The notes under the pieces were generated by a model. It was not told the DNA's origin. It searched no databases and saw nothing but the letters and a program-made list of their open reading frames with translations. A program made the translations under genes and the position numbers. From the sequence record OR067838.1: 64,000 bases of DNA; one strand, 5' to 3'. Positions 12,121 to 58,572 of the stretch are shown one piece after another. How positions within the stretch are numbered: position 1 is the stretch's first letter; every line of letters starts with the position of its first letter. The stretch comes from Escherichia phage KKP 3954.

Positions 12121-12399
12121 TTACGCCTGATTAGGTTTGTTATCAATATAAACCAATACAAAACGTTTATCTCGACCTGTAGTTGTATACCCAGGACGAC
12201 CATTAATCTTAACTGTATCTACTATATACAATTGACCATCTGGCACACTTTCAAGATATTTATAAGGTTTAAGAAGATCTAAACCATTTGTAACTTTGAA
12301 ACTTATACTTGGATCATCTCCAGATAATCCTATCTGACATTGCCAAGACTCGTCCCTAGTGTTCCACCTTAAACGAATGTCATAATCAACTCCATCCAA
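12121..12399 (-). CDS. small tail/baseplate protein; N-terminus probably extends to ATG near 12449
   Basis: Track start is TTG; adding one A to the A4 run upstream gives MVSEKLKSIPDQTYTVTLDGVDYD in frame from ATG at about 12449..12447. Confidence 0.3.
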   Translation of the reverse strand: MDGVDYDIRLRWNTRDESWQCQIGLSGDDPSISFKVTNGLDLLKPYKYLESVPDGQLYIVDTVKINGRPGYTTTGRDKRFVLVYIDNKPNQA

Positions 12400-12537
12400 T
12401 GTAACTGTATATGTTTGATCAGGTATACTCTTCAGTTTTCAGATACCATGCAAAATAAGTAGAATGGTCCTCCAGATAAACTGCACTGTAGCCTGTATTA
12501 CTTGTAGACCTTGTTGTTTTAGAATAAGTTGTCACTA

Positions 12538-13239
12538 TTAACCTCCGTTGTTTGTTGGGGTATTAGTAGCTTCAGCAGTTCTTACTGTAATATCTGACTT
12601 AGGACCATTCGAAGCAACTTGACCTTTCACATCACCACCAGTTGACTTATTTGGTGCTGTTTTTACAGCAATAGCGTTAGTAGTGGCCTTAGAAACGAGA
12701 CGGATTTGTTCAAACTCTAAATCAAATTGCATAGCAAATTCAGATTTATAATCATACGAATAACCTTTGAGGATAACATTTTCAAAAGTTCTGTGTTCTG
12801 TCAAAAGAACTATTGGTTGTCTTGCCTCAAATATTTGGTCTAGATATTCTATTGCTTGAGAAATCCTTGCTCCATTTACACCTGCACTGTATAATTGATC
12901 TCGCATAAGCCGAATTGGTGTTTCGGTAATTATACCTGAAAGTTTAAATCTGTTGTTTTTTATTTGAACGTGGTCACTTACATCCGATCCTGATTCTACT
13001 GGAAAACTTGTAACATCTGCCTCACGAGTTACACCTACTTCAGGGACCGAATCGAAAGTAATTGCTTTAAAGTTTTGAATGTATTGATCACTTGAACTAT
13101 TATAAACACTTGCTAAAATGCAGAAACCATTATCACCCTTTACAGTAGATGCCGAGGTATTTTTATTCTCGGTAGAGTTGATTTCCTGTTCTGCCTTATA
13201 GACGGCTCTCACCGACTGTTGTGGAGTCATTGCTGCCAT
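12538..13239 (-). CDS. tail protein of unknown function
   Basis: 233-aa ORF between tape measure and baseplate genes. Confidence 0.3.
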   Translation of the reverse strand: MAAMTPQQSVRAVYKAEQEINSTENKNTSASTVKGDNGFCILASVYNSSSDQYIQNFKAITFDSVPEVGVTREADVTSFPVESGSDVSDHVQIKNNRFKLSGIITETPIRLMRDQLYSAGVNGARISQAIEYLDQIFEARQPIVLLTEHRTFENVILKGYSYDYKSEFAMQFDLEFEQIRLVSKATTNAIAVKTAPNKSTGGDVKGQVASNGPKSDITVRTAEATNTPTNNGG

Positions 13240-13365
13240 GATAACCTCGTAGTAATGATAATGCCAAAAGGAAGATGCAAGATCTTCCCATATTGATTAT
13301 TGTAACACATATAGAAACTTCGTGTCAAGGAAAACGAAAATACCCCGCCGAAGCGAGGTATTTTA

Positions 13366-14985
13366 TTAACCACCAGTGTTAGATTGTCCACTTAGAGTTG
13401 AAAGAGACAAACGTTGGAAAATACTATTTCCGCTATTTTGAATTCTTGCATCAAGAATATTTCCAAACTCGGAAGAAGGGCTGATCGTAACTTTGATAAG
13501 ATCACTTGGTATTGCTACCGTATTCTCAACAACAGGTTGATTACGAGCCAAACTTACGTTAGGTGTATAGGCTGATTCACGTAAATCTTCAAGAGGATTA
13601 CCAAATCCAAAAGCACGTGTCCTTGTTTGTTCTCCTCTCCACATACGACCAATATCTTGTGTATCAATACCTGTTAAATTATACAACCAATCTGCTACAG
13701 GATTGCTGTCTCCACTTTGCGTTGCCTCGTATGCTTTTTGTGCCAAAGATTTATTAGGATCTGTGTTGTCTCCGAAGGTATCTGGGAATGTTTCTTTAAG
13801 CCAATTGGTAAAAGATCCGAAACCATCTCCTAATTCTTTAGCAAAACCACCAAGTTGAACTGTTGTTTTACCAAGTTCTTCACCTAAATCTTTGGCGAAC
13901 TGATCTAGCACTTTAACGTTATCCAACCAAGAATCATCTTTAGGTAAAGCTTTTACAAAACCTTCTAAGAAATGGTTCTGCATACCTTGACCTACAAGCT
14001 GAACTGTTGCAGCAAAACGAGTAAACTCTTTAGAAGCATCTATTTGTTCTTGAGTTAATGTTGCACCTGTTCTTTGAAGCATTTTCAATACTTCATTATA
14101 CCCTTCGCCGTTTTTACTAAACATACGTTGGTAGTGCATAAGGTCATCACCAAGGTTTTCAAGAAGTCGCCCGATTTGAGCGGAGTTCATACCTCGACGC
14201 TCACCTTCATTAACAGTAGCCTGAATAAAAGCTAAAGGATCGTTCTGTAAAGGTTTAAGCTGTTCTGGATTCCATCCAAACAAGTTCATAATGTCAGTTA
14301 TGCCATTATCACCGCCTTTCCACTTCCCTTCTTTCTCATTCCACTTTGCAGCTAAAACTGTATTACCAAGACGTTCACGAACGTCTTTAATATTATCTAT
14401 TGATTTAATAATATTTGCAGAGTCTACACCGTTCTGTTCACCCCAAGCTGTCATTGCCAAAATAGCGTTGGCGTTTGTCTGAACGTTTTCAGCACCACGG
14501 CTTACAAGTTTAATTCTTTCGTTAGTATTCATCAACGTGTTACCAACTACAGAACCACCTGCAAACAGCCCAGCACCTATTAAAGAGGATGCAATCATGC
14601 GTGGATTAAGACCTGCCGCACCTTCTTTTAATTGTCCATATCGACGATCACGATCACGTTTTTGTTGAGCTAATTCACGCTTACGGTTGCGTTCTATATC
14701 TCTAAGTTCACGATTTCGCATACGTATACGCATTTTAGCTTCTGCTTCTAACTCTCTACGAATACGGCGACGACCGCGAACCTCGTCTTCTATTTCAGCA
14801 TTCTTTTCACGATGCGATCTGCGTAAAGCATCCAACTGGTGAGCAAGAGCTTGGTTCATACGTTGAAGAGTTATTTCACCCTTTTTGTATTGCTCTACAG
14901 CTTTACCCATAACATCTCTAGCTTCTTGCATAGCGCCAGGACTGGCTTTACTAAATGCTCTTGCTCTGTAGTTAAAGTTCTGCAA
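13366..14985 (-). CDS. tail tape measure protein, main part
   Basis: 539 aa, Arg/Glu-rich coiled-coil N-region then Gly-rich hydrophobic segment; follows tail chaperones. Confidence 0.5.
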   Translation of the reverse strand: MQNFNYRARAFSKASPGAMQEARDVMGKAVEQYKKGEITLQRMNQALAHQLDALRRSHREKNAEIEDEVRGRRRIRRELEAEAKMRIRMRNRELRDIERNRKRELAQQKRDRDRRYGQLKEGAAGLNPRMIASSLIGAGLFAGGSVVGNTLMNTNERIKLVSRGAENVQTNANAILAMTAWGEQNGVDSANIIKSIDNIKDVRERLGNTVLAAKWNEKEGKWKGGDNGITDIMNLFGWNPEQLKPLQNDPLAFIQATVNEGERRGMNSAQIGRLLENLGDDLMHYQRMFSKNGEGYNEVLKMLQRTGATLTQEQIDASKEFTRFAATVQLVGQGMQNHFLEGFVKALPKDDSWLDNVKVLDQFAKDLGEELGKTTVQLGGFAKELGDGFGSFTNWLKETFPDTFGDNTDPNKSLAQKAYEATQSGDSNPVADWLYNLTGIDTQDIGRMWRGEQTRTRAFGFGNPLEDLRESAYTPNVSLARNQPVVENTVAIPSDLIKVTISPSSEFGNILDARIQNSGNSIFQRLSLSTLSGQSNTGG

Positions 14986-15043
14986 ACGAAGATTACCTAA
15001 GTCTTCCCTACGTGCTGCTGCTTTAGCTTCGCGTTCAGCAGCT

Positions 15044-15355
15044 TTACGAGCTTTTTTCTTCTTCTCTTCCTTGCGGGGTTTTAGGAGTTCTAGGTCTGCC
15101 AGATCCGCCTACAGGAGCACCCGCTCCAGCGGGAGTAGGTGCTCGCATAGGTTTTTGACTTTGAGTTTGAGCTTTCTTAAGTTCACGCTCAATCTCTTTC
15201 ATTTGTTGTCTAAACTTGGTCATGTTCATAGTGGGTTGCATTTTATTTGCAAACTTCTGAACACTCAACACGGCATCTTTTGCTTCCTTGAGACTGTTCT
15301 TGTCCACCTTAAACGTAACCACGTTACTAATTTTGGAGGCGTTAATTTCTAACAA
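15044..15355 (-). CDS. tape measure protein N-terminal segment, separated by apparent frameshift
   Basis: Frame stays open from 15099 into the 13366..14985 ORF; deleting one A of the A6 run at 15047-15052 fuses them. Confidence 0.4.
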   Translation of the reverse strand: MLEINASKISNVVTFKVDKNSLKEAKDAVLSVQKFANKMQPTMNMTKFRQQMKEIERELKKAQTQSQKPMRAPTPAGAGAPVGGSGRPRTPKTPQGREEEKSS

Positions 15356-15375
15356 AGTATGTTCCTCGTGTTGGA

Positions 15376-15714
15376 TTAAACAAGTTTCTTAAACAAATCT
15401 GACATTTTATTTGTCTGGTTTTGATGTTTTCTCTTTATTGAAGTGTCTTTAACATACATGGCTTCAACATACTCTTCGTATGTTAAATACTCATATAGTT
15501 TTAAAAGATAATCTACACCGTAGTTATCCAATGTTTTCAGTGTTTCCGAGGTATCTTTAACGACTTTGCAAAGAATAACCTCATACCACTTCAAAGTAAG
15601 GGTTTTCGTTGCTGTGTCGATAGCATGTTCAATCGCAGGTGTTAATTTGCTGCTAAACTCGTCATCGCCTGAAGCTGTGTGAACAGTTTTCCGAAACCTC
15701 GTTTGAAAAAAGGG
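15376..15714 (-). CDS. tail assembly chaperone frameshift extension (gpGT-like)
   Basis: The -1 frame is open from the slippery site into ORF 15376..15594. Confidence 0.45.
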   Translation of the reverse strand, partial: PFFQTRFRKTVHTASGDDEFSSKLTPAIEHAIDTATKTLTLKWYEVILCKVVKDTSETLKTLDNYGVDYLLKLYEYLTYEEYVEAMYVKDTSIKRKHQNQTNKMSDLFKKLV

Positions 15715-16124
15715 CCGTAGTTTACCTCCAGAACTTTAGCAGTAAGATCTAACACTAGTTCTGGGTGAGCCATAAATAATTCATCAAAATTTTCTGCAAC
15801 GTTATAACCGTCTTGAGTATAAACCTCATCTAAAATTTTACGCAAAAAGACAGTTAAATTCTTTTCTTCCAAACCTGCAAAAAGTTGGATCAGTGCCATA
15901 GCAATACGTGACTCAAGGTCTTCGTCTGCGGACATTGTTGCTGTGCTATACATAGTCATAGGAACAACCAGAACACTACCCAATTCTGGAATCCTGTCAA
16001 ACACTTTAGATGGACTCCACTTCATAATACGGAAAGTAACAGATCTGTTTCCATCTAACGGAATCTCAACTACTTCTTCTGGTCGAGCATATTTTTGAAT
16101 TGTGTTATCTTGTTCTTGTGACAT
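15642..16124 (-). CDS. tail assembly chaperone (gpG-like)
   Basis: 160 aa between tube and tape measure; contains slippery heptamer near 3' end. Confidence 0.5.
   Translation of the reverse strand: MSQEQDNTIQKYARPEEVVEIPLDGNRSVTFRIMKWSPSKVFDRIPELGSVLVVPMTMYSTATMSADEDLESRIAMALIQLFAGLEEKNLTVFLRKILDEVYTQDGYNVAENFDELFMAHPELVLDLTAKVLEVNYGPFFKRGFGKLFTQLQAMTSLAAN
15708..15714 (-). promoter_or_regulatory. -1 ribosomal frameshift slippery heptamer C_CCU_UUU
   Basis: Minus-strand GGC CCT TTT TTC; X_XXY_YYZ in the zero frame of the chaperone gene. Confidence 0.5.
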
Positions 16125-16169
16125 ATTTTCCTCTCTAATGATAAAAAGGGCATTTCTGCCCTTTATTTA

Positions 16170-16649
16170 TTATTGAATTGTCAGAGCAGAGATTGAGTTA
16201 AGGGTGCTCAAACCTACACCAACTTCATTACGCAGAAGGCTTGCATCTTTAAGACCAATAACCCATTGGTTCTCTGTAATCATTTCGCCAATAGTATCTT
16301 CAGGCTGACTTTGAATCCATCCAATCGTGCTAATGTAATAGCCACGTGGGTCTTCCAAGTAAACACTGAATGCTACTTGACGAGTAGAATACATTGTTTG
16401 TGCATATGTTGCAAGTACTTCGTTAGCTGGAGATGTGCGTTGCAAAGACATTGTGAGTGTTCCCAAACGGTTACGACTCAAAGCTAGTGAAACGTCGCCA
16501 TCAGTCCCTGAATAAGGGTTGATAATATCGTTAGATTTAGCAATAACGATTTTAGTATCAGCCGCAAAACCCCACGGTTCCCAACCACCTAATGAAAGGA
16601 TAACTTGAGATGGGTCGTAGGCCATTACGCCAGTAAGCATTTTATCCAT
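16170..16649 (-). CDS. tail tube protein
   Basis: 159 aa directly downstream of sheath. Confidence 0.5.
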   Translation of the reverse strand: MDKMLTGVMAYDPSQVILSLGGWEPWGFAADTKIVIAKSNDIINPYSGTDGDVSLALSRNRLGTLTMSLQRTSPANEVLATYAQTMYSTRQVAFSVYLEDPRGYYISTIGWIQSQPEDTIGEMITENQWVIGLKDASLLRNEVGVGLSTLNSISALTIQ

Positions 16650-16661
16650 TATAGATCCTCT

Positions 16662-17783
16662 TTATTTTGATAACGGGGGGCTTAACCCCCGCCGTATTAG
16701 TTTGCAAGTACGGTTAGTCAGGACGTTGACCTGAACTTTAACGTAATGGAAGAAGCCAGCGTAAACATATTCAATCTTCATCCCATCAACCAGACGAGCA
16801 TTGATTTGCGCATCGGTCATATCGGCACGAGAAGGAATATAAACAATAGGTTTCAGATCGACACGCAAACCAGTCTCTTCAGAAGTAACAACTTCATTAG
16901 CGATGGAACCGTTGAGGATACCTACTTGGATCGGGTTAGCCAGAACAGCTTGTCGAATCAAAGCCAGACCGTTTGAAGTAGCACGAACACCACCACCCAG
17001 CATAGACTGTTGTTTAAACAGTGTAAACAGTGATTCTTCTGTGCGAGCTTTAAACCACAAAGCATGAACAACATAGTCAACAAAGAAACCGCTAACCATC
17101 AATCCATCACGATAGAACAGAGTTCCATGCTCTTTACGATAGATGTTACCGTTCTGTTGAACAATATTGTTTTCCGAAGTCTGATCCAGTTTCTCGATCT
17201 CTACTCCTACCAGTGTTTTACCGTGAAGGGTAGTTAAACCAGGTTGACGAGAACAGATTGCACCAACAACTGCTGCTTCTGGGAATACAGAATCTGCATC
17301 AGTCATCCACAAAGCAAAGCAAGTGTTATTATAACCGAGGTCATTCAGTCGTTCCAGAACGTTATCTTCTGCTTTCGTTTTAATTCCAGGTTCAGAGCTA
17401 GAGAAGAAGTAAACTTTATCATTCTCTTCTACCCATGCAGCCAAAGCTAGAACATCTTCTGTTTCATGGGAATCTGAAAGGGTCCAGAACCAGCTACTAT
17501 CAATATCATGCAGAGCAGCGATATCTTCCGTAATAGCATTAGCATAGACAGTTTCTTGAGTGAAACCTGTGCTGTCAATAGAACCAAACTTACCTTCTAC
17601 TGGAGTGAAAGTCATTGCAGCGCCGTTGTTAGCTACTGTAAACAGTGGGCCATAAACAAGATCTGCATTGATCATTTCAGTCAGACCAACTACAATCTCT
17701 TGTGCAGTTGCAGTGTCATCAGCAATGAATTTAAATTCTTTTTTCTTGGGTACCATTTTTGATGGTAATTGTGTAAGTTGCAC
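16662..17783 (-). CDS. tail sheath protein, C-terminal part
   Basis: 373 aa; overlaps upstream fragment in another frame at an A6/T6 run. Confidence 0.5.
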   Translation of the reverse strand: MQLTQLPSKMVPKKKEFKFIADDTATAQEIVVGLTEMINADLVYGPLFTVANNGAAMTFTPVEGKFGSIDSTGFTQETVYANAITEDIAALHDIDSSWFWTLSDSHETEDVLALAAWVEENDKVYFFSSSEPGIKTKAEDNVLERLNDLGYNNTCFALWMTDADSVFPEAAVVGAICSRQPGLTTLHGKTLVGVEIEKLDQTSENNIVQQNGNIYRKEHGTLFYRDGLMVSGFFVDYVVHALWFKARTEESLFTLFKQQSMLGGGVRATSNGLALIRQAVLANPIQVGILNGSIANEVVTSEETGLRVDLKPIVYIPSRADMTDAQINARLVDGMKIEYVYAGFFHYVKVQVNVLTNRTCKLIRRGLSPPLSK

Positions 17784-18072
17784 TATCTTCTACGATTGGA
17801 GTTAGAGTAAAGTTTGTAACTTCACGCTTACCAACCATGACTTGATCTGGTGGGAACAAACCGTTAAACAGTTTGACTGCCATAATATACGCTGGATCAT
17901 TTAATCCATAACCTGCTTCCAAAAGTGCATCGGAAGAAGAGTAATATTGAATCGCTTCGCCAGTTACGTTCTGACCTGTAAGGATCAGAGGAATATCGAA
18001 CTGGGTTTCACGAATTGATGTAGCACCATACAGTAAAGTTACGGTTGCTACCTTTTCACGAAAAGTTGCCAT
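17731..18072 (-). CDS. tail sheath protein, N-terminal part
   Basis: 113 aa; together about 486 aa, typical sheath length. Confidence 0.45.
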   Translation of the reverse strand: MATFREKVATVTLLYGATSIRETQFDIPLILTGQNVTGEAIQYYSSSDALLEAGYGLNDPAYIMAVKLFNGLFPPDQVMVGKREVTNFTLTPIVEDSATYTITIKNGTQEKRI

Positions 18073-18106
18073 TTATGCTCCTGTTAGAAACTTAATTCCA
18101 ATGAGT

Positions 18107-18766
18107 TTATTCGGTAGGGTTGTTAAATAATGATCCATTTTGATTGACTGACGAGTATTCGCCTGGAACCAAAGTAATTGCATAAACCCTGTTTAGAATT
18201 AAATCTAAAGGGATAGGATCATTGTAACTATCTCTGAATGAACGGATGTGCATGTTGATTGCTTCTATTGGTGTAGTAGCAATATCTTCAATACTCATAC
18301 GAGTGTTGAACGTCATAACCATACGCGCTCTTAATTCAGTCTTATCTCCGTCTACAATCGTATTGGCTTGAGCTATATTAGAGGCTCCTAAAAAACCAAG
18401 ACCTTTAGAATAGAGATGTTTGTATTTTAATTCCTCTGCACCACGGAGAGCAGCCAGAACATAGCTCATCAAAGTGGTAGGTCTTCCACGATAGGCTACA
18501 AGTTCAATCTCGTAGGTATTATCCATCTCGTAGGAATACATATCATTTTGAATAGAGCTTCGGTAAGACCAACCTCCAGAATCGCTGGAAGTGATAATAC
18601 GTAGTGCTAGGTAAGGAGTATCCGGTTTAATGAATGGCTTATCCATAACATAGACTGGCAACCCCACTAATTCTTGAAGGAAGCCACCTATATTTAAGTA
18701 GATGGCATTTTCGTATGCTTCTATTTGTTGGTAAATATTAGCCAAAGTTTCCTCCTTCTGTTCCAT
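18107..18766 (-). CDS. head-tail joining / tail completion protein
   Basis: 219 aa, position between head and sheath genes. Confidence 0.3.
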   Translation of the reverse strand: MEQKEETLANIYQQIEAYENAIYLNIGGFLQELVGLPVYVMDKPFIKPDTPYLALRIITSSDSGGWSYRSSIQNDMYSYEMDNTYEIELVAYRGRPTTLMSYVLAALRGAEELKYKHLYSKGLGFLGASNIAQANTIVDGDKTELRARMVMTFNTRMSIEDIATTPIEAINMHIRSFRDSYNDPIPLDLILNRVYAITLVPGEYSSVNQNGSLFNNPTE

Positions 18767-19187
18767 AAGACCAGGAGTTGTTTTGATCGTCTAATATTGC
18801 AACACAGTGATGATGGACTAAGAAAGATGTTCTGGTCCAATCTTTAAGGGAATAAACAGAATACCATTTACCATCTATCAGTATCTGATCTGATAACTGT
18901 TCTGTTCCTTGTTGTAACCCCTTCATTTCTGTTTTAGTCCAGAAACTATATTGAGCCTTAGATCTGTAACCTTCAGGTAGTGCATTCAGTGTTTTACCAG
19001 ATATCGGTTGTAAGCTTGCCGCTTCAATAGTAAATGGTTCATATTCTACACTACTTTCTAAGTTAGCAATAACTGAACCAACCGCCTCTTTGTAGACTCG
19101 TCTACGACCTTGGTATTCAGTTAGATCAAGGAGAGTAAATTGATCTAGTAACACTTGTATCTCCTTTTTAGTATACATCAAAAACAA
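18738..19187 (-). CDS. hypothetical head-tail connector protein
   Basis: 149-aa ORF in morphogenesis operon. Confidence 0.3.
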   Translation of the reverse strand: MFLMYTKKEIQVLLDQFTLLDLTEYQGRRRVYKEAVGSVIANLESSVEYEPFTIEAASLQPISGKTLNALPEGYRSKAQYSFWTKTEMKGLQQGTEQLSDQILIDGKWYSVYSLKDWTRTSFLVHHHCVAILDDQNNSWSYGTEGGNFG

Positions 19188-19199
19188 AGTTTATGCAAG

Positions 19200-19688
19200 T
19201 TATTTTTTAGACTTGCTTTTTGTGATTTTTGTTTCGATTGCATTTATCATGTATGCCGTATCTATTAAGATATGATTAGAATAGTTGCCTTTATCTTGTC
19301 GTATCTTAATTGTCACAGGAGATAAAGGACGATAACGTTGCATTGCAATCGCTTGAGCTATTCCTTCTCTAGAGGCTCTCGCTATAGGCTCAAAAACAGC
19401 TAACCCAACATTATTCATTAAGTAATTTGCAAACACCTGCTTCATCTTTTTAGCGATATTGTTCTGTGAGATAACAGCACCATCTGTTATAAAAGGGCGA
19501 GCAGGTATGTTATTTGTTTCATTACCATATTGTTGAATAGCTGCTATTGCAGGAATAGTGAGATCTGATTCAGGATGCCTTTTGTTTGTTAAAAAACCAG
19601 CTTCGATTTGAACTTGTTCAAGGTCCATCATCTTTTTGATAATGGTTTCCCAATCCGTATCATCACCTGGTAAGATCTCACTTTCCAT
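19200..19688 (-). CDS. hypothetical head-tail connector protein
   Basis: 162-aa ORF in morphogenesis operon. Confidence 0.3.
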   Translation of the reverse strand: MESEILPGDDTDWETIIKKMMDLEQVQIEAGFLTNKRHPESDLTIPAIAAIQQYGNETNNIPARPFITDGAVISQNNIAKKMKQVFANYLMNNVGLAVFEPIARASREGIAQAIAMQRYRPLSPVTIKIRQDKGNYSNHILIDTAYMINAIETKITKSKSKK

Positions 19689-20236
19689 TATTTGTCCCTA
19701 CGATAAAAAGAAACAGGTCCATAATTTCGCAAATAATTAACGTTGCGTGTATTACGATCAACACTTGCAACATTACCAAGACCATTTACAGAGTTAGGAT
19801 CGCTGTTTACTCGATCAATCTCACGAGCATCAACACCACCAATAAGAACTTTACTGGTTGCTCCTCGTCCTGCCATGCACCCAGGAATAACCATAAGACC
19901 ATTTAAATAGTTATGATAAATATCTTCCCACGGAGACTTATAAGTTACTTGACCGTTGTTAAATTTAACTTCAACTTCGACTTCACCCATCTTTTCTCTG
20001 CGGGACATAGCTCCTCCTGTTTGAGTATTGTTATTAAGAACATCGTTGTTCCATAAATACTCTAAAACAGAAATCAAGCTGTTCCACAATACTGCACACT
20101 TATCCTTATCTTCATTCCCTATAATATCAATCCAAGTCTGGATGATCTGAATCAGCATTGCATCTGGCAATACTTCTTGAGAAGGGTTATAAACAAGAAT
20201 TCGGATCAGTGGTGCCAACTCTACCGCATTCAGCAT
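19688..20236 (-). CDS. hypothetical head completion protein
   Basis: 182-aa ORF, start/stop overlap with neighbour. Confidence 0.3.
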   Translation of the reverse strand: MLNAVELAPLIRILVYNPSQEVLPDAMLIQIIQTWIDIIGNEDKDKCAVLWNSLISVLEYLWNNDVLNNNTQTGGAMSRREKMGEVEVEVKFNNGQVTYKSPWEDIYHNYLNGLMVIPGCMAGRGATSKVLIGGVDAREIDRVNSDPNSVNGLGNVASVDRNTRNVNYLRNYGPVSFYRRDK

Positions 20237-21697: not shown

Positions 21698-21973
21698 TTA
21701 AGAAGTGAAAACGACTTTTTCGGTCAGTTTCAGATCATGTGTTTCCAGTGCTGCTACGCCAGCGTCATCTACCAGGGAGCCATCTTTGTAGTATACTGCA
21801 AAGCGGTTCAGAGTAAGATCACGTACGCCAACAACTGCGGTGAAAGTGTCACCTACTGCTACATCATCAATACCGAACAGAGCATCAGTCCAAATCAGAA
21901 CTTTAGCAGCATCGGCAGCTTCAGCTTTAGCAGCTTCAGTGTTGTCAGCTTTCAGGATAGAACCAATTTTCAT
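21698..21973 (-). CDS. small head protein (decoration-like)
   Basis: 91 aa between scaffold and capsid. Confidence 0.3.
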   Translation of the reverse strand: MKIGSILKADNTEAAKAEAADAAKVLIWTDALFGIDDVAVGDTFTAVVGVRDLTLNRFAVYYKDGSLVDDAGVAALETHDLKLTEKVVFTS

Positions 21974-22117
21974 GGTTGCTGTTTTAACCAGGTTAACTTC
22001 ACGTATACACAGTGTCCAAGGTCAGAGCTAAACACTCCACCCAGAACCAGGTGTCCGAATTCCTGGCGAGAGTTAGATAAAGTAATTCCTTTAGCCATTT
22101 AATTTAATCTCCTAAGA

Positions 22118-29053: not shown

Positions 29054-29132
29054 TGGAGGCGGGAATTGGATTTGAACCAATGATCTCCAGCATATGAAAC
29101 TGGCGAGGACGACCAGACTCCTCTATCCCGCT
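29054..29132 (-). tRNA. tRNA-Met (CAU), CCA encoded
   Basis: Manual fold: acceptor AGCGGGA/UCCCGCC, D-stem GAGG/CCUC, anticodon loop UUCAUAU, T-arm AUUGG-UUCAAAU-CCAAU. Confidence 0.6.
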
Positions 29133-29139
29133 ATCATGT

Positions 29140-29208
29140 ATCCCGTGCTGGATTCGAACCAGCGTCACAATAAATTGTGGATCTCTTATCCTGTAAGTCT
29201 AACGGGAA
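29140..29208 (-). ncRNA. tRNA-like RNA with aberrant anticodon arm
   Basis: Canonical T-arm GCUGG-UUCGAAU-CCAGC and 6-bp acceptor, but the middle folds only as CACAA-UUUA-UUGUG; 69 nt. Confidence 0.35.
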
Positions 29209-29210
29209 AC

Positions 29211-29284
29211 TGGTTGTTTCGACAAGAATCGAACTTGTGTCTCACGATTATCAGTCGTGGGTTCTACCATTGAACTACGAAACA
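29211..29284 (-). tRNA. tRNA-Ile (GAU)
   Basis: Perfect 7-bp acceptor, D-arm GUUC/GAAC, anticodon loop CUGAUAA, T-loop UUCGAUU, CCA encoded. Confidence 0.7.
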
Positions 29285-29290
29285 TTTAAT

Positions 29291-29620: not shown

Positions 29621-29933
29621 CCTATATATTTACTATACTACATTTTACTATTTGTTGTCAAGACTTTTATTGATTGGGACAGTGACGAGTATCCCGTTGG
29701 GTGACTAGCCCTACGTTCGGTAAGCTAACTTAAAATAATACAAAACCAAAGTCAAATATTATTCTTCGTTGCTGTCGATGGGAGAGCCGCTTCTCATTTT
29801 GCCCCATCCAACCCTACTCCGGTCAAGTTTCGGGTGACTCTTTTTGTGATCAACACAATACTAAGAACACTGTCTTTCGAGCAGACCTTGTGCACAGGAA
29901 CGACGATCAATCACAATGCTCTTAATGTTGTGT

Positions 29934-31956: not shown

Positions 31957-32433
31957 TGCACACCTCCATTCTTGTTAAGATGTTTCATGTATTGTACTTC
32001 ATACTAATCTATAGATCAAGTATTATTTATAATAATTTATTATTTTAATTGATAGAAGTTGATCTATACATACCAGTTCTGATACACTGTACCTGTTTGT
32101 TAGATCTAATAATTATTTATTATTAATATTTAATAATTATTAATCTAATACGAATGACAATATTTGAGTATGAGAGTACTACATCAACAACCTAAAACCT
32201 TAACTCGCTGCGCTCGTTAATAGATTTCTAGGGTAGCATACTTCGAACACAAAAGTCAAGTGTTTTATTAAAATTATTTTCTGTGTGCAAAAACCTTGCT
32301 TAAACAGGTAGCAATAGTATAGCCTATAACATAAGCTTCATAAGAGGCTCGTAGAGCAAGTTTACTTACTAGGTAAGGTGATTTATCATCTTATATATAA
32401 AAAGTGCGTCAGAGACGCGTTTAGGAGGCTAGA
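31957..32433. promoter_or_regulatory. AT-rich divergent control region
   Basis: About 480 bp without ORFs between minus and plus gene blocks; TAATAATTATTTATTATT-type repeats, palindrome GATCTATAGATC, inverted repeat GCGTCAGAGACGC before first RBS. Confidence 0.4.
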
Positions 32434-42812: not shown

Positions 42813-43459
42813 GCAGATTAACAGAAGAGCAGAAAGCAGATATCCTTAGTATGAGTGCAGAGGGTATGTCTTCTCGCAATATTGCAGCAATTGTTTTAGG
42901 TAGTCCAACAAGAAAAAGCACAGTAAATGATTTCCTTGCACGTTTCGGTGCAAGTAAACAAGAGCCAGTTAAAAAGAAACAACCAGTTATTAAAATTATT
43001 GATGTTGAAACTGCACCAGAGATTGCATATACTTTCCGTCGATTCAAAGCCTTCATTTCTCCAGACCAGGTAATTCGTAGGGGTTATTTGTTATCTTACT
43101 CTTCTGCTGATTTGTATACAGGTGAAGTAGAAGGTAAGAACTTATCTTCTTATCCTCTTTTCGATATCGATCATACAGACGATTGGGAGCTTTGCCAAGA
43201 TCTTTGGAACCTTCTGAATGAGGCAGATGTAGTTGTGGCACACAACGGGTATAAGTTTGACCGTGCATACATTAACCAACGATTTGCATATCACGATATG
43301 GCTCCTCCTTCTAATTATGTAGTTGTTGATACATTGAAGGCAGCTAAGAAACAATTTGCACTTCCTTCCAACTCCCTTAAAGAAATGGGAGCATATTTCG
43401 AAACAGAAAGTGAAAAACTGGATAACGAGGGGTTCCCCTTTATGGAAAGCATGTTGTGA
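42809..43459 (+). CDS. DnaQ-like 3'-5' exonuclease, N-terminal part
   Basis: Exo I IDVETAP, Exo II AHNGYKFD; N-terminal HTH-like segment. Confidence 0.5.
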   Translation: MSRLTEEQKADILSMSAEGMSSRNIAAIVLGSPTRKSTVNDFLARFGASKQEPVKKKQPVIKIIDVETAPEIAYTFRRFKAFISPDQVIRRGYLLSYSSADLYTGEVEGKNLSSYPLFDIDHTDDWELCQDLWNLLNEADVVVAHNGYKFDRAYINQRFAYHDMAPPSNYVVVDTLKAAKKQFALPSNSLKEMGAYFETESEKLDNEGFPFMESML

Positions 43460-43769
43460 AGGTGATCGTGATGCTTTTGAACGTATGCAGATTTACAATG
43501 ATGGCGATGTTGTTTCACTCCGTGATTTGTATATGAAAATCCTTCCGTGGATTCCACAGCATCCTAACTTATCCGCTTATTACCCAGATGAGAAGGTCCG
43601 TTGTTCTCGTTGTGGCAGTGATCACGTTCACGTTGTTACTGGTAAACAATACCACACTGCGGTAAGTTCTTTCGATATCATTCGTTGTGAATCTTGCGGA
43701 GGTTTGTCACGTAGTAGAGCAAACACCAGATCCAAGGATAAACGAGCAGCAACTATCATCGGAATCTAA
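43356..43769 (+). CDS. DnaQ-like exonuclease, C-terminal part after frameshift
   Basis: Exo III YNDGD then Cys4 zinc ribbon; frames meet at GGGG/CCCC runs near 43420-43430. Confidence 0.45.
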   Translation: MHFLPTPLKKWEHISKQKVKNWITRGSPLWKACCEGDRDAFERMQIYNDGDVVSLRDLYMKILPWIPQHPNLSAYYPDEKVRCSRCGSDHVHVVTGKQYHTAVSSFDIIRCESCGGLSRSRANTRSKDKRAATIIGI

Positions 43770-45865: not shown

Positions 45866-45875
45866 GGAGAAAAAA

Positions 45876-46289
45876 ATGACAAAACAGATTTCGGCTAGTA
45901 TTATTGCACATTCCATCACTGAAGACGGAAAAGAGATTGTAACTTTCGAACTTGAATATCCACGTATTATTCATTCAGAACTGATGACTCACCGCCTGTT
46001 CAGTCGTAACGCTGCTTCTAGCCGTGCTATACCTGTTAAAACACTGATCGAAATGGTGCGAAATCAGCCTGCTCGTCCTTATCGTTTTGGTGCTAACCAA
46101 CCTGGTATGCAGGACAAAGGTGTTGACCATGATGCTCTTATTGATGCAGGTTATACTGCTCAAGAGTGGTGGGATCTTGCCGCGCTTAGCGCAGCACGTT
46201 TTGCAGAAGAATTCTCTTTGGCAGGGAATACCACAAACAAGTTGCAAACCGTCTTCTGGAACCTTTCCAACGAATTAAAACAGTTCTGA
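45876..46289 (+). CDS. thyX: flavin-dependent thymidylate synthase ThyX-like, N-terminal part
   Basis: THRLFSRNAASSR fits ThyX (R)HR-x7-S-x-R with Thr for the first Arg. Confidence 0.5.
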   Translation: MTKQISASIIAHSITEDGKEIVTFELEYPRIIHSELMTHRLFSRNAASSRAIPVKTLIEMVRNQPARPYRFGANQPGMQDKGVDHDALIDAGYTAQEWWDLAALSAARFAEEFSLAGNTTNKLQTVFWNLSNELKQF

Positions 46290-46357
46290 CAGCAACAGAA
46301 TATGAAAATTTCTGGTGGCTACGTGATGACAAAGAAGCCGATCCTACTATCGAAGCT

Positions 46358-46876
46358 TTGGCTAAAGAGATGCACAAAGAGTATGAAGAATCTACACCAG
46401 AAGTGCTGAAACCAGGGCAATGGCACACACCTTATGTAGACCATTTCTATGATAATATTGGCACAGAAGGTGACGATCATTTTGTTTTTGGTGGATACTA
46501 CGTTCAAGATGAATCTGGAGAAGTTGTTGTGCTTACTTTGGAAGAAGCTAAAGCTATTTCAGCTTCGTGTTGTGCACAGGTTAGCTATCGTCGTTTGAAT
46601 GCAACTAAAGATAAAGCTTTAGATATTTATGGTCGTTTGCTAACTGGGCGCAAGGTTCATGCTTCTCCATTTGAACATCAAGCCACCCCAATGCAAGAAA
46701 CATGCGAACAATACGGAGAGAACTGTTTTGAAGATTTGTTTATCAATGCTCCTTGGGATTTTAACTCTTGGGAACCAGGTATTACCCATGTAGATCGTAA
46801 TGGTAAGTTTTGGTCTGGCAATTTCAAAGGTTGGATTCAACATCGTCAACTTTTAACAAATCATACTAAATGGTGA
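46358..46876 (+). CDS. thyX: ThyX-like, C-terminal part after frameshift
   Basis: Frame open from 46190; ANRLLEPF...TATEYENFWWLRDDKEADPTI matches ThyX NF-x-LR-xD block. Confidence 0.45.
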   Translation: MAKEMHKEYEESTPEVLKPGQWHTPYVDHFYDNIGTEGDDHFVFGGYYVQDESGEVVVLTLEEAKAISASCCAQVSYRRLNATKDKALDIYGRLLTGRKVHASPFEHQATPMQETCEQYGENCFEDLFINAPWDFNSWEPGITHVDRNGKFWSGNFKGWIQHRQLLTNHTKW

Positions 46877-49893: not shown

Positions 49894-49900
49894 TGAAACT

Positions 49901-49922
49901 AGGGGCTTCGGCCCCTTTTTAT
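49901..49922 (+). terminator. rho-independent terminator
   Basis: AGGGGC-TTCG-GCCCCT plus TTTTT. Confidence 0.6.
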
Positions 49923-49937
49923 TGAGGAGAATTTTAA

Positions 49938-51863: not shown

Positions 51864-52349
51864 ATGCGCTATCTGGTAACAGGTGGTCTTGGTTTTATTG
51901 GGAGCGCCGTGGTGCGCTCTCTTTGTCAAGATCCTAATAACGAAGTTTTTATCATTGATAAAATGGGTTATGCAGCAGACATTGAGAATGTAGGTGATAT
52001 CACTCACGCTAAACTAAGCATGACAGATTTGGCAAACGAAGCCCAGGTCAAAAGTTTAGTAGTAGAGTGCAATCCCGATTTCATCATTCACTTAGCGGCA
52101 GAGAGCCATGTGGATAATTCTATCAAGAATCCACGAGCTTTCATCGACTCCAATATTATTGGTACATACAATTTATTGGAAGCTGCAAGGCTCCTCCCAA
52201 AGAATAAACTGAAGATGTTCATACACGTCTCCACAGACGAAGTGTATACGGTGATATGGCAGACTCTGGCGTTCCCTTTACCGAAGAGACAGCTTATGCC
52301 CCTTCAAGCCCGTACAGTGCGTCTAAGGCAGCATCTGACCATCTTGTGA
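51864..52349 (+). CDS. rmlB: dTDP-glucose 4,6-dehydratase, N-terminal fragment
   Basis: Rossmann GGLGFIGS; reads through HVSTDEVY then leaves frame. Confidence 0.75.
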   Translation: MRYLVTGGLGFIGSAVVRSLCQDPNNEVFIIDKMGYAADIENVGDITHAKLSMTDLANEAQVKSLVVECNPDFIIHLAAESHVDNSIKNPRAFIDSNIIGTYNLLEAARLLPKNKLKMFIHVSTDEVYTVIWQTLAFPLPKRQLMPLQARTVRLRQHLTIL

Positions 52350-52858
52350 AAGCTTGGCACCGTACCTACGATTTACCTGTTGTGATAACCAACTGCTCCA
52401 ATAACTTTGGACCCTATCAACATCCAGAAAAGCTGATCCCAAAAATCATCACAAGTATCTTGACGAATAAAGAGATTCCGGTGTATGGTAAAGGCGATCA
52501 GGTGCGAGACTGGCTTTTTGTTGAGGATCATGCGCGAGCTATTCTTCAAGTGGCAACAGGTGGAGAACCAGGTAAAACGTATAATGTGGGAACACGTAAT
52601 CCCAAAACCAATATGGAGATCATCTATATGGTTTGTGACTACATGGATGCTGTACATCCAGAAGCAGGAACCTACCCTTCTTCCAACTTGATAACTTTTG
52701 TTGAAGATCGTAAAGGGCATGACTTGCGTTATGAAATCAATCCTTCTAAGATAGAGTTTGAACTGGGTTGGAGTGCAAACTCTACATTTGAACAAGATCT
52801 CTACTCAACGATTGAATGGTACTTAAACAACCCTCAATGGTGGAGTGGGAAGATTTAA
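52256..52858 (+). CDS. rmlB: dTDP-glucose 4,6-dehydratase, C-terminal fragment
   Basis: Continues VYGDMADSG...[13 protein letters not shown] (YxxxK) in shifted frame. Confidence 0.75.
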
Positions 52859-52866
52859 GGAGGGCT

Positions 52867-53745
52867 ATGAAAGGTATTATTTTGGCGGGAGGAAGTGGAA
52901 CCCGCCTTCATCCGGTAACACGCAGTGTGAGCAAGCAATTGCTCCCTGTGTATGACAAACCCATGATCTACTACCCTTTATCGGTATTGATGTTGGCTGA
53001 CATTAAGGATATCTTAATCATTACCACACCAGGCGATCAGGAAGACTTTGAGTATCTTCTCGGAGATGGGTCTATGTTTGGGATAAAACTCACTTACGCA
53101 ATCCAATCCGAGCCACGAGGTCTTGCGGACGCTTTCATCATCGGTAAAGATTTTATCGGAGAAGACTCTGTTGCTCTTATTTTAGGTGACAACCTATTCT
53201 TCGGACAAAGCTTTGGTAAACTACTGATTAACGCCAGTGAGATGGTAGATGTTTGTGGCGGAGCTTGTATCTTCGGGTATTTGGTGAAAGATCCTGAACG
53301 ATTCGGTGTGGTTGAATTTGGGAGTAATCGTCAAGCTATTTCTATTGAAGAGAAACCTGAAAATCCTAAATCAGATTATGCTGTCACAGGTTTGTATTTC
53401 TATGATAACTCTGTTGTTCAACGTGCATTAGAAGTAACCCCTTCCGCGCGTGGAGAACTGGAGATCACAGATATCAATCGCAGCTACCTCGAAGACAGGA
53501 AGTTACAAGTGGAAGTTCTCGGACGAGGATTTACTTGGCTTGACACAGGAACACACGCCAGTCTGATGGAAGCTGGTCAATTCGTGCAGACTATTGAGAA
53601 CCGTCAAGGATTGAAGATTGCGTGCCTGGAAGAAATTGCTTTCAAAAAAGGGTGGATTTCTTTAGAGACTTTGTTGTATCATGGAAACTCACTGAAGAAA
53701 ACAGAATACGGGCAATACCTACTCAAATTAGCGGAGAGAAAATGA
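52867..53745 (+). CDS. rmlA: glucose-1-phosphate thymidylyltransferase
   Basis: [32 protein letters not shown], near-identical blocks to enterobacterial RfbA. Confidence 0.9.
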
Positions 53746-54308
53746 AAGTAGAAAAAACAAAAATTGAAGGTGCGGTAATTATCAAACCAGACGTTTATAA
53801 AGATGATCGTGGTTTCTTTTTAGAAACATATAATGAACAAAAATACGAAGATATCATTGGTAGACAAACTTTCGTTCAAGATAACATGTCTAAATCAAAC
53901 TTCGGTGTTTTGCGAGGAATGCACTTTCAAACAAATAATCCGCAAGGTAAGCTTGTTCGTTGTGTAAGTGGGGAAGTATTGGATTTCGCTGTAGACCTAC
54001 GTAAAGATAGTCCTACTTACGGTGCTTGGGACGGTGTTGTTCTTCGTGCACGACACCATACACAGTTCTGGCTTCCACCTGGTTTGGCACATGGTTTTAT
54101 AGTGCTGAGTATGGATGCTATCTTCGAATACAAATGCACAACTCCATACGACCCTTCCAGCGAACAAAGTTTACGTTGGGATGATCCTGATATAGGGATT
54201 GATTGGGGCTTCGATATGATTTTTGACGAAGATTTTAAACCTATCTTATCAACAAAAGATGCAATGGCTAAGTCTTTTCAACAGCTACGTAGCGAGGGTG
54301 TATGCTAA
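53742..54308 (+). CDS. rmlC: dTDP-4-dehydrorhamnose 3,5-epimerase
   Basis: ATG overlaps rmlA stop; RGMHFQ cupin motif. Confidence 0.8.
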
Positions 54309-55144
54309 CATATCTGGTATTGGGTGGTAATGGACAACTGGGACAAGCTTTACGTAAAGTGGCTCCTTCAAATGTGTCTTTAATTTATCCTAAAGAACGT
54401 GTAGATATTACAAATTTTGAAGCTGTGCGAAACGCTATTGTTGAAGATTATGTAGATGGTGTTATTAATTGCGCTGCTTATACGGCTGTAGATAAAGCAG
54501 AACATGATTTTGCTACTGCTTTGGCTGTTAATGCCTATGGCCCTGCAAATACTGCGGCAGTGTGCAGCAAACTTAAAATTGATTTTGTGCATATTTCTAC
54601 AGACTATATTTTTAATTATTCTCATCCTATTTTTGAAGATACTACACCTAACCCAATAAACAATTATGGGTATACGAAAGAACTTGGTGAAAAAATGGTG
54701 CGAGGAGTTAACCCAAATGCATATATTATTCGAACAGCCTCGGTATATAGCGAATTTGGAAATAACTTTCTAAAAACCATGTTGTCTCGCTATAATGATG
54801 GACAACGTGATTTTATTATTGTTGCTGATCAGTTCTCTTGTCCAACATATGCCCCAGATTTAGCAGAAGCTATTTTTGAAGTATTAAAAACAGGTTGGTC
54901 AAGATCTGTAAAGACTTACCATTTTGCAGGAAGCCATCTTATTTCTTGGGCGGAGTTTGCGGAAAAGATCTTGACACAGATGCCAGAACCTGTTAAGATA
55001 TCGGCGGTATCAGCTTCAACCTATAATGCTCCAGCAGCACGTCCGGTGAAGTCACAATTAGTAACCAGTCACTATCTTACAAAATCAGATTTAAATAAAG
55101 GTATTGAACGGTCTTTAGCAGTATTACTTAATAAGGAGAGGTAA
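54302..55144 (+). CDS. rmlD: dTDP-4-dehydrorhamnose reductase
   Basis: 280 aa, N-terminal GGNGQLG Rossmann motif, operon position. Confidence 0.75.
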   Translation: MLTYLVLGGNGQLGQALRKVAPSNVSLIYPKERVDITNFEAVRNAIVEDYVDGVINCAAYTAVDKAEHDFATALAVNAYGPANTAAVCSKLKIDFVHISTDYIFNYSHPIFEDTTPNPINNYGYTKELGEKMVRGVNPNAYIIRTASVYSEFGNNFLKTMLSRYNDGQRDFIIVADQFSCPTYAPDLAEAIFEVLKTGWSRSVKTYHFAGSHLISWAEFAEKILTQMPEPVKISAVSASTYNAPAARPVKSQLVTSHYLTKSDLNKGIERSLAVLLNKER

Positions 55145-57399: not shown

Positions 57400-58091
57400 T
57401 GACGACAATTATTGCAACCAAAAATAAGATTTTGAGTGACGGTAAGGTAACTTTTGGTGGACGTGTAGATTCTATTAATTTCAAAAAGGTCCGAAAAATT
57501 GGAGATTACCTTGTAGGTGGTGCTGGTCGTCTGACCTCCGTGCTTTCTTTCTTTCAATGGTTTGAACAAAATCTACAGTGCGAAGCAGCACGTGATGCTG
57601 TCCCTGGTTTGATGATTCACTCTGATCCAGATAAAGAAGATGAAGAGTTTATTGCACTTGTTGTTCATCCTGACGGACGTATTTTCCTGCACGAAGGTAA
57701 CAACCCAACACGTGCATATCCGATTGATGAAGAATATTATGCGGTAGGAAGCGGGTCAGACTTTGCTTTAGCTGCTCTTGATGCAGGGGCAACACCAGAA
57801 CAGGCTATGGAAGTAGCTAAAAAGCGAGATGCTTTTTCTGGTGGTGAAACATTTGTTGAAGAACAAGATGAGATTATTGAATTAACAGACGATGATTTAG
57901 AAAACTTCTCCAAAGAAGAATTGATCAATCTTTTGAAATTCGGTAATCCCTACGGTGAAGAAGAACCTCGTAACGTGGCAGGTAACGAGGCGGATACTGA
58001 AGAAAAATCTGTTGCAGAAAACAACTTGACTTCTAAATCTGAAAATATTAATCTCGTAAATGTGGCGGATTTCGAAGGAACCGCTATTTAA
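57399..58091 (+). CDS. HslV/ClpQ-like Ntn-hydrolase peptidase
   Basis: MTTIIA N-terminus, KKVRKI, GGAGRLTSVLSFFQWFE and YAVGSGSDFALAA parallel E. coli HslV; acidic C-terminal tail. Confidence 0.6.
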   Translation: MTTIIATKNKILSDGKVTFGGRVDSINFKKVRKIGDYLVGGAGRLTSVLSFFQWFEQNLQCEAARDAVPGLMIHSDPDKEDEEFIALVVHPDGRIFLHEGNNPTRAYPIDEEYYAVGSGSDFALAALDAGATPEQAMEVAKKRDAFSGGETFVEEQDEIIELTDDDLENFSKEELINLLKFGNPYGEEEPRNVAGNEADTEEKSVAENNLTSKSENINLVNVADFEGTAI

Positions 58092-58096
58092 CAAAC

Positions 58097-58118
58097 TGCC
58101 CCTTCGGGGGCATTTCTT
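58097..58118 (+). terminator. rho-independent terminator
   Basis: TGCCCC-TTCG-GGGGCA plus TTTCTT. Confidence 0.5.
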
Positions 58119-58218
58119 AAACATAGGAGATTAATAATGTTACAAGTTCCTGCTAAGTTTGTTGAAGGCGCTATCCACTCTTACCGTCAAACATGTAAGA
58201 GGGCAAGAAACTGTTTAG

Positions 58219-58572
58219 ATGGTCTGGTGGCAAAAACCTATACTGTTGAAAAAGAAAAAACGTTGGTTTGGCAAAGATGTTTACGAAGTTAATATTTTTG
58301 GTGAACATAAACTAAACCACGATACTCCTGAAAACATGTTAGAAATATTTCTAAGAGATGACAAAATATCTCCTATGGATTACCAACTTTTAAAATTTTA
58401 TGATTCTTCTTTGGCTATTGATAAGTTTGTTGAAGATATTCTGTCTAGAAAAACAGATAAAAACACTTATCCTCTAGAGGCTGATCAAATAGGATTATTA
58501 AACGAGATTTCATCCTTTAAAGAGTTGGATAATATTACAAAAGAGGAGATTTTAGATGGCATTAGATTATGA
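58219..58572 (+). CDS. hypothetical protein; probably starts at ATG 58137 before a frameshift
   Basis: ORF from 58137 (RBS AGGAG) joins this frame at an A6 run near 58250. Confidence 0.3.
   Translation: MVWWQKPILLKKKKRWFGKDVYEVNIFGEHKLNHDTPENMLEIFLRDDKISPMDYQLLKFYDSSLAIDKFVEDILSRKTDKNTYPLEADQIGLLNEISSFKELDNITKEEILDGIRL

Follow-up and report, generated by a model that had tools for sequence, protein, structure and literature searches.

Frame breaks in the deposited genome of an Escherichia phage concentrate at GTAC sites and homopolymers and probably reflect systematic sequencing errors

Several described systems offer terms of comparison for the split reading frames found in the genome of Escherichia phage KKP 3954. 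In tailed phages, programmed frameshifts occur in tail-chaperone genes. Restriction enzymes cutting at G^TAC, such as Csp6I and CviQI, leave 5'-TA overhangs, and fill-in of these overhangs followed by end joining (GTA+TAC) produces GTATAC. Homopolymer miscalls are a known feature of 454, Ion Torrent and nanopore sequences. Finally, the errors of nanopore consensus sequences fall preferentially in methylation motifs and, next, in homopolymers (Wick et al. 2019, PMC6591954), and those induced by base modification are mainly C to T and G to A changes (Liu et al. 2024, PMC11610603).

The window, i.e. the whole stretch of 64,000 nucleotides of record OR067838.1 analysed here, was identified by database comparison as belonging to a Phapecoctavirus, a phAPEC8-like E. 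coli myovirus, with 98-99% identity to more than 60 Phapecoctavirus genomes. Private indels, meaning here short indels of non-triplet length found in a single genome, were counted on a five-genome alignment, which included the window and four close relatives. ESCO5 was used as the reference for intact genes and for the evaluation of amino-acid identity after repair.

The window contains 15 private indels, 14 insertions and one deletion, none with a length multiple of three, vs 2-4 private non-triplet indels in each of the four relatives: a number far above chance. Similarly, the best 20 matches to the region 12000-20000 are each 4-5 nt shorter than the window. Ten of the indels are located within coding sequences and break nine genes, all of them intact in ESCO5 and annotated as full length in the relatives (Table 1). 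Deletion in silico of the bases private to the window restored the full length of 9/9 genes, with 96-100% amino-acid identity to ESCO5, and the protein comparison revealed no decay downstream of any break. For the sheath gene, two insertions had to be removed, the one at 17748 and the one at 16706, the latter a few codons ahead of the stop. No break is common to any relative, either among the four aligned genomes or among database phages at the two sites tested: the insertion at 7299 is missing from 60/60 phage records spanning an 81-nt query, and that at 46227 from 64/64 records.

Table 1. Private indels and GTAC-related features of the window. Gene coordinates, where available, are given with the name of the gene. 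The last column reports the two ORFs into which a broken gene is split, or a note on the position.
Feature	Position	Strand	Change	ORF pair after break or note
Tail protein, 958 aa, 6388-9266	7299..7300	-	+TA, GTAC>GTATAC	6388-7305 / 7269-9266
Virion structural gene, 137 aa, 12121-12535	12424..12424	-	+1, gives GGTATAC	12121-12399 / 12419-12535
Tape measure gene, 13366-15355	15052..15057	-	T5>T6 (coding-strand A6)	13366-14985 / 15044-15355; true run-length change
Non-coding hairpin GGGGG-CTTAA-CCCCC	16675..16680	.	G5>G6	directly 3' of sheath gene
Sheath gene, 16697-18072, second frame error	16706..16706	-	+A directly 5' of AGTAC	
Sheath gene, 16697-18072, main frame break	17748..17748	-	+G directly 5' of GGTACC: TT(G)GGTACC	16662-17783 / 17731-18072
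Head decoration gene, 132 aa, 21698-22098	22004..22005	-	+TA, GTAC>GTATAC	
Sole private deletion	29899..29900	.	-T, GGATACG>GGAACG	non-coding, between tRNA-Gly and tRNA-Thr
Exonuclease, 319 aa, 42809-43769	43435..43438	+	C3>C4 in GGGGTTCCC(C)	42809-43459 / 43356-43769
Run upstream of ThyX-like gene	45870..45876	+	A6>A7	between GGAG ribosome-binding site and ThyX-like ATG; frame unaffected
ThyX-like gene, 332 aa, 45876-46876	46227..46228	+	+AA, GGGTACC>GGGAATACC	45876-46289 / 46358-46876
dTDP-glucose 4,6-dehydratase gene, 51864-52858	52245..52246	+	+TA, GTAC>GTATAC	51864-52349 / 52256-52858
Hypothetical gene, 144 aa, 58137-58572	58249..58253	+	A4>A5	58137-58292 / 58219-58572
Private substitution, example	13681..13681	.	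GTAC>ATAC	
Further substitutions of the same class	938-940 (GTGC), 25351, 26680, 52221			plus the intergenic array
Intergenic GTAC array	31985..32180	.		

Six of the breaks had been listed in an original prediction, which regarded them as systematic miscalls and warned against reading the split coordinates as gene boundaries. All six were found in place, each matching an insertion missing from the four aligned relatives, while the coding breaks at 7299, 16706, 22004 and 52245 are additional to that list. The orthologue comparison proposed along with the prediction agrees with it on both points, since the breaks are private to the window, without counterpart in relatives, and repair rebuilds genes which the relatives carry as single, intact ORFs. 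Assembly of a contractile-tail phage requires both sheath and tape measure, and a phage encoded by the deposited sequence would be unable to make a tail. The breaks are therefore to be regarded as artefacts, rather than as the real pseudogenes or slippage sites which the prediction had allowed for in some cases, and the broken genes are almost certainly the product of sequencing or assembly errors, not of biology. Gene decay, considered as a separate candidate, was rejected on the absence of any shared break, on the identity of the repaired proteins and on the prevalence of synonymous over non-synonymous changes (206 vs 80) among private substitutions outside GTAC, a ratio in keeping with ongoing purifying selection.

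The other part of the prediction, a 1-nt change at a homopolymer as the common origin of the breaks, was only partly confirmed. It applies to the tape measure gene, to the exonuclease and to the hypothetical gene at 58249. It does not apply to the sheath, where the main break is an extra G at GGTACC, next to T6 and T5 runs having the same length in relatives; to the small structural gene, where the change falls not in an A4 run but in a sequence reading GGGTAC in ESCO5 and AV126 and GGATAC in DE16 and UP17; or to the ThyX-like gene, whose repair is a 2-nt change. In total, only five of the 15 indels alter the length of a homopolymer, and the other ten do not. About 290 runs of at least 5 bases are present in the window, and almost all of them are unaffected. 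The G added at 16675..16680 is unpaired in the hairpin, as the C5 arm offers no partner for it. Eight of the 15 indels, on the other hand, are located within 2 nt of a GTAC, a zone which accounts for about 0.6% of positions (binomial p ~8e-15), and three of them (7299, 22004, 52245) exactly convert GTAC to GTATAC.

The same motif stands out when private substitutions are evaluated. GTAC is the sole enriched 4-mer, with 12 of 32 sites substituted (p 1.8e-13; p ~1e-3 for the next best 4-mer), vs 1/225 for GATC and 2/55 for CCWGG. Of 14 private substitutions within GTAC, 11 are either G to A (eight) or C to T (three). Among the GTAC sites unanimous in the other four genomes, about 18 of 32 are altered in the window; when each relative was used as a control in the same test, 0-2 of 20-22 sites were altered. 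The resulting number of GTAC sites is 30 in the window, vs 54-62 in relatives. Taken together, the indels found near GTAC and the substitution enrichment limited to GTAC indicate that the dominant systematic factor is a sequence motif.

Some of these changes are found within an intergenic array. In the 241-nt stretch 31960-32200, relatives carry 9-10 GTAC sites and the window three. Seven sites are altered, by G to A and C to T changes, by a GT to TG swap and by insertions of AT (31987) and of G (32172); a 6-7-nt deletion within a T-rich stretch at 32042 is also present. Apart from the altered sites the segment is essentially the same as in relatives. Among 64 database records the top identity across it is only 93.8%, vs 98-99% genome-wide. 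Within genes, GTAC substitutions are few, three synonymous and two non-synonymous, and on these few sites do not differ from the background outside GTAC; some GTAC substitutions could therefore be genuine site losses.

The indels are thus private to the window and concentrated at GTAC and homopolymers, and their removal restores the genes. The explanation that we favour, and hold to be quite likely, is that the frame breaks are errors of the deposited sequence, of two systematic classes, the GTAC class deriving most likely from the signal of modified DNA and most plausibly from nanopore reads. The first class would consist of one-base over-calls of short homopolymers (T5 to T6, G5 to G6, A6 to A7, A4 to A5, C3 to C4). 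The second would include the errors at the GTAC palindrome, i.e. TA or AA placed inside the site, one base placed just 5' of it, or replacement of an outer base by a G to A or C to T change. Its most likely cause would be a read chemistry in which the native base shapes the signal, nanopore sequencing without short-read polishing being the most plausible candidate. A GTAC modification outside the training of the basecalling model would lead to miscalled GTAC, with the Dam (GATC) and Dcm (CCWGG) sites correctly called.

A combination of homopolymer errors with errors at a single palindromic motif seems to fit the nanopore consensus errors documented on modified DNA, and suggests nanopore as the probable platform. 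As with methylation-motif errors in nanopore sequences, for example at the Dcm motif CCWGG in Enterobacteriaceae, one short palindrome is involved together with homopolymer length, the substitutions are mainly G to A and C to T, and the remaining sequence is as accurate as that of the relatives. Unlike in those cases, the motif is GTAC rather than a Dam or Dcm site, with no coliphage report found, and indels are prominent, TA duplication above all; the likeness is drawn from the consensus sequence alone. The comparison with the homopolymer miscalls of 454, Ion Torrent and nanopore sequencing holds for the five indels which change runs of 3-6 bases by one, three of them breaking genes. These are, however, a minority here, they are all over-calls and the runs involved are short. 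Nanopore homopolymer errors are more commonly deletions than insertions, and polishing may over-correct them; the strong prevalence of insertions in the window is a bias without explanation, which speaks against the nanopore reading. Neither GTAC-specific nanopore errors nor nanopore frameshifts in Phapecoctavirus turned up in the literature searched.

The exact GTAC to GTATAC insertions are also the expected fill-in product of a G^TAC cut, and could have been generated by a library or finishing step in which DNA was cut with Csp6I/CviQI or with RsaI and the fragments were filled in and joined, physically or in silico. Such an origin is quite improbable, as it leaves unexplained the AA insertion at 46227 (GAATAC), the insertions located 5' of an intact GTAC (16706, 17748), the G to A and C to T substitutions, the GT to TG swap in the array and the co-occurrence of homopolymer over-calls. 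In addition, GTAC-cutting enzymes are, to our knowledge, part of no common phage-sequencing workflow.

Alternatively, the changes may be real, with GTAC sites lost under restriction or by deamination of methylated cytosine, and the indels representing repair scars or a defective, decaying genome. Selection against the site does exist: GTAC is 4-7-fold under-represented across the genus (30-62 occurrences vs about 225 expected), as in restriction-site avoidance, and relatives differ among themselves at some sites. Moreover, G to A and C to T changes are the expected outcome of 5-methylcytosine deamination at GTAC, and its coding substitutions show no non-synonymous enrichment. Nevertheless, we consider this very doubtful. 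Scars such as those of the window would be lethal, as no myovirus able to form plaques could carry frameshifts in sheath (two), tape measure, baseplate-region protein and tail protein. Several of them, including those at 16706 and 17748, leave GTAC intact and provide no escape from restriction, and about half of the sites, 30 in number, persist. No relative has any of the changes, the conservation of the repaired proteins downstream of the breaks gives no sign of pseudogene decay, and the homopolymer over-calls would require a separate cause. A last reading is that full-length proteins arise by programmed -1 ribosomal frameshifting, or by slippage of the transcript, on runs of A or T. In its favour, the tail module shows a gene written as two overlapping frames next to such a run, and three breaks fall within or close to one (15052, 58249, and 17748 with its neighbouring T-runs). 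Its probability is nevertheless close to nil, because programmed sites are conserved among relatives, whereas here neither the two-frame architecture nor the slippery run is conserved, the four aligned relatives and the database records tested having one uninterrupted ORF per site, with the run one base shorter, because most breaks are located away from slippery runs, and because sheath, tape measure, ThyX-like and exonuclease are not known to us as frameshift genes.

Under the preferred explanation, that of errors in the deposited sequence, the pattern hints at a chemical modification of the phage DNA at GTAC, which could be due either to a host methyltransferase or to a phage-encoded methyltransferase-like protein. 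It is conceivable, although we lean slightly against it, that the GTAC errors trace a genuine, so far undescribed GTAC-specific modification carried by virion DNA, and that the dense, conserved array at 31985-32180, located in a divergent intergenic region, is a regulatory region under heavy modification; the writer could then be a GTAC restriction-modification system in the host used for propagation, or one of three small methyltransferase-like proteins that Phapecoctavirus encodes. By motif inspection, ORF 58556-59065 of the window, which matches phrog_799, appears methyltransferase-like (EPCRG and NPPF motifs), and so do, by their catalytic motifs, ESCO5 gp218 (NPPF) and gp058 (FDGSG, PPC, ENP). 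Searches of Pfam, NCBIfam and PDB sequences assigned no family to this ORF or to the two ESCO5 candidates. No additional methyltransferase is peculiar to the window, and no segment of it is unique when compared to the relatives. The literature searched contains no report of GTAC modification in Phapecoctavirus; its GTAC methylomes are from Helicobacter, archaea and other organisms different from E. coli, and an E. coli-focused review mentions GTAC solely through a Helicobacter reference. In the BASEL phage-collection study, Phapecoctavirus-type phages were very sensitive to restriction systems (PMC8594841), which counts against a general protective modification.

For practical purposes, the nine split genes should be annotated as intact, and the approximately 20 differences at GTAC sites are unfit for use as phylogenetic or host-adaptation signals. 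A correction limited to homopolymers would mend five of the 15 indels, leaving untouched the more numerous errors linked to the motif. Should the proposed cause be right, a GTAC modification could be read indirectly, and at no cost, from the error pattern, in phages for which a high sensitivity to restriction has been reported.

A further run, T4 to T5 at 59548, was initially considered as a 16th error and was dropped, as the same run length is found in AV126, which identifies it as a natural polymorphism.

The window was compared with genomes of the same genus. A megablast search with positions 12000-20000 retrieved 63 phage records with at least 80% query cover, most at 95-99% identity and all belonging to Phapecoctavirus (phAPEC8-like E. 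coli myoviruses); the 20 best hits are each 7996-7997 nt long, slightly shorter than the 8001 nt of the window. The homologous ~64 kb and its annotation were taken from four relatives, ESCO5 (RefSeq), vB_EcoM_DE16, vB_EcoM_UP17 and AV126; the five genomes were aligned with MAFFT, and the 95 annotated ESCO5 CDSs were projected onto the window.

The alignment revealed 15 short indels in well-aligned context that are private to the window, i.e. absent from all four relatives: 14 insertions and one deletion, none a multiple of three in length. Private indels number 2 in ESCO5, 2 in DE16, 4 in UP17 and 3 in AV126. Ten of those in the window break nine genes, while the other five are non-coding (see table).

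Genes broken by private indels, private indels by sequence class, and related loci
Feature	Position	Change relative to relatives	Context
Tail protein gene	6388-9266	broken by private indel
Structural protein gene	12121-12535	broken by private indel
Tape measure gene	13366-15355	broken by private indel
Tail sheath gene	16697-18072	broken by two private indels
Head decoration protein gene	21698-22098	broken by private indel
Exonuclease gene	42809-43769	broken by private indel
ThyX-like gene	45876-46876	broken by private indel
dTDP-glucose 4,6-dehydratase gene	51864-52858	broken by private indel
Hypothetical gene	58137-58572	broken by private indel
GTAC-linked indels	7299, 22004, 52245	GTAC>GTATAC
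GTAC-linked indel	46227	GGGTACC>GGGAATACC
GTAC-linked indel	16706	C-AGTAC>CAAGTAC
GTAC-linked indel	17748	TT-GGTACC>TTGGGTACC
GTAC-linked indels	31987, 32172		intergenic GTAC array
Homopolymer indel	15052	T5>T6	tape measure gene
Homopolymer indel	16675	G5>G6	hairpin 3' of sheath gene; added G unpaired with C5 arm
Homopolymer indel	43435	C3>C4
Homopolymer indel	45870	A6>A7	ribosome-binding-site spacer
Homopolymer indel	58249	A4>A5
Two small methyltransferase-like proteins of ESCO5	NC_047776.2 19479-20162 and 104004-104798

Only five of the 15 indels lengthen a single-base run. Eight lie inside, or at most 2 nt from, a GTAC site of the relatives, although GTAC ±2 nt makes up ~0.6% of aligned positions (binomial probability of at least 8 of 15, ~8e-15). 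At a ninth position, 12424, the window reads GGTATAC and the relatives GGGTAC or GGATAC. Not every homopolymer difference in the window is an error: T4>T5 in the ribosome-binding-site region at 59548, seen against three relatives, is common to AV126 and is a natural polymorphism. Other deposited genomes of the genus carry occasional homopolymer errors too, as DE16 (OP595145.1) shows: at window-equivalent 20620 one of its A-runs is extended by a private +A, and the gene annotated there is 345 nt long, compared with 396 nt in ESCO5.

Substitutions point to the same tetranucleotide. The window contains 30 GTAC sites, compared with 62, 57 and 54 in the same ~64 kb of ESCO5, DE16 and UP17. When the test was restricted to positions unanimous in all four relatives, 14 of 323 window-private substitutions fell inside GTAC (odds ratio 22, p 3e-14), mostly G>A (eight) and C>T (three), with three others. 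GTAC is the only clearly enriched 4-mer (12 of 32 sites altered, p 1.8e-13; runner-up p ~1e-3), whereas Dam GATC (1/225) and Dcm CCWGG (2/55) stay at or under the 4-mer background of ~1.8%. As a control, every relative was in turn compared with the remaining four genomes; 0-2 of 20-22 sites were truly altered, against ~18 of 32 in the window. A minority of these substitutions may be genuine, since GTAC is 4-7-fold under-represented in the genus, some sites differ among the relatives themselves, and the five coding substitutions (three synonymous, two non-synonymous) are too few to inform. Once GTAC sites and indels are set aside, the window looks like an ordinary genus member, with 369 private substitutions against three relatives (300-458 in those relatives) and 206 synonymous to 80 non-synonymous changes outside GTAC.

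The clearest case of GTAC-confined change is 31960-32200, a divergent intergenic region with the structural/tRNA block of the minus strand on one side and the DNA-metabolism block of the plus strand on the other. Its (A)GTAC repeats provide 9-10 sites within ~240 nt in the relatives, all four of which keep the array despite the genome-wide depletion, and only 3 in the window; seven sites are altered, while the remaining segment is essentially identical. Among 64 database records, identity here reaches just 93.8%, against 98-99% elsewhere in the genome.

Filling in a G^TAC overhang (Csp6I/CviQI) likewise yields GTATAC from GTAC. Neither a library artefact caused by a restriction enzyme nor a scar of repair in vivo can explain all the events, however, as the +AA insertion, the insertions with GTAC intact, the substitutions and the homopolymer class are left over. 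Pseudogenes and a decaying genome are excluded for practical purposes, because every break is followed by conserved sequence and none occurs in any relative: after removal of only those columns gapped in all four relatives, 9/9 genes returned to reference length, without internal stops and with 96-100% amino acid identity to ESCO5. In addition, 81-nt queries spanning +AA at 46227 and +TA at 7299 matched 64 and 60 phage records, respectively, all over 79 nt and none reaching 99% identity. Programmed frameshifting is excluded, since the two-frame architecture is not conserved in the relatives.

The breaks are thus very probably artefacts of some kind in the record, and as a biological feature they are not real. 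Myovirus assembly is impossible without sheath and tape measure; in the window the sheath gene is frameshifted twice and the tape measure gene as well. The original prediction, in which six split genes were read as systematic homopolymer miscalls, located existing breaks, formed by overlapping or abutting ORF pairs, and the orthologue comparison confirms that they are unique to this record and far over the relatives' background. Its reading of the breaks as artefacts is supported. Its proposed homopolymer cause holds for the tape measure, the exonuclease and ORF 58137-58292, and for about one third of all events, but the dominant cause is GTAC-linked, as in the sheath, the small structural gene and the ThyX-like gene; the T-runs cited at the sheath site have the same length in the relatives.

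The distribution of changes, which affect homopolymers and a single short palindrome, the latter also by G>A and C>T substitutions, matches the two classes of consensus error documented for nanopore sequencing. Wick et al. found most consensus errors in a methylation motif unlearned by the model, followed by homopolymer lengths, whereas Dcm errors were few when the model had been trained on E. coli (PMC6591954); according to Liu et al., bacterial DNA modification induces chiefly C>T and G>A errors (PMC11610603). A basecalling model that had learned Dam/Dcm methylation of the E. coli type would be expected to leave Dam and Dcm sites clean. From the error distribution, these published patterns and the clean sites, it seems fairly probable that native DNA bearing a GTAC modification was sequenced on a signal-based platform. 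An insertion bias is atypical of raw nanopore homopolymer errors, and the 14:1 ratio counts against this reading. A literature search gave no report in which GTAC is connected with nanopore errors or with Phapecoctavirus. The genus is reported to be exceptionally restriction-sensitive (PMC8594841), which argues against a broad protective modification and is silent on GTAC. The sole biological interest of the breaks is this indirect hint of GTAC modification.

Possible writers of such a mark, judged by sequence motifs, are a 169-aa protein at 58556-59065 (EPCRG and NPPF motifs, matching phrog_799, 'DNA methyltransferase') and, beyond the window, ESCO5 gp218 (EPSAGEG and NPPF) and gp058 (FDGSG, PPC and ENP), which resembles a cytosine-5 methyltransferase; a Pfam/NCBIfam search gave no family match for the three. 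A host methyltransferase is equally possible. For 51864-55144 (ESCO5 107401-110545), the published suggestion that rhamnose glycosylates hydroxymethylated nucleotides (PMC7552041) is also raised.

No gene lacking from the relatives was found in the window. The remaining non-intact ESCO5 projections correspond to module replacements, absent HNH-endonuclease insertions or an ESCO5-private indel. The tailspike/tail protein module at ~1500-4100 differs strongly from that of all four relatives; two ESCO5 CDSs have no projection there because of this mosaic replacement, not sequencing error. An array of 10 tRNA genes occupies 29054-30977; the tRNA-Tyr located between tRNA-Asn and tRNA-Ser in UP17 and AV126 was not detected in the window, and this spacer (~30190-30400) is divergent among the relatives. 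Insertion polymorphisms occur at 33568, where ESCO5 carries an HNH endonuclease and the window and DE16 do not, and at 49898-49932, between two ribonucleotide reductase subunit genes, where ESCO5 carries an HNH endonuclease and a small ORF, AV126 and UP17 have shorter insertions, and the window and DE16 have none.
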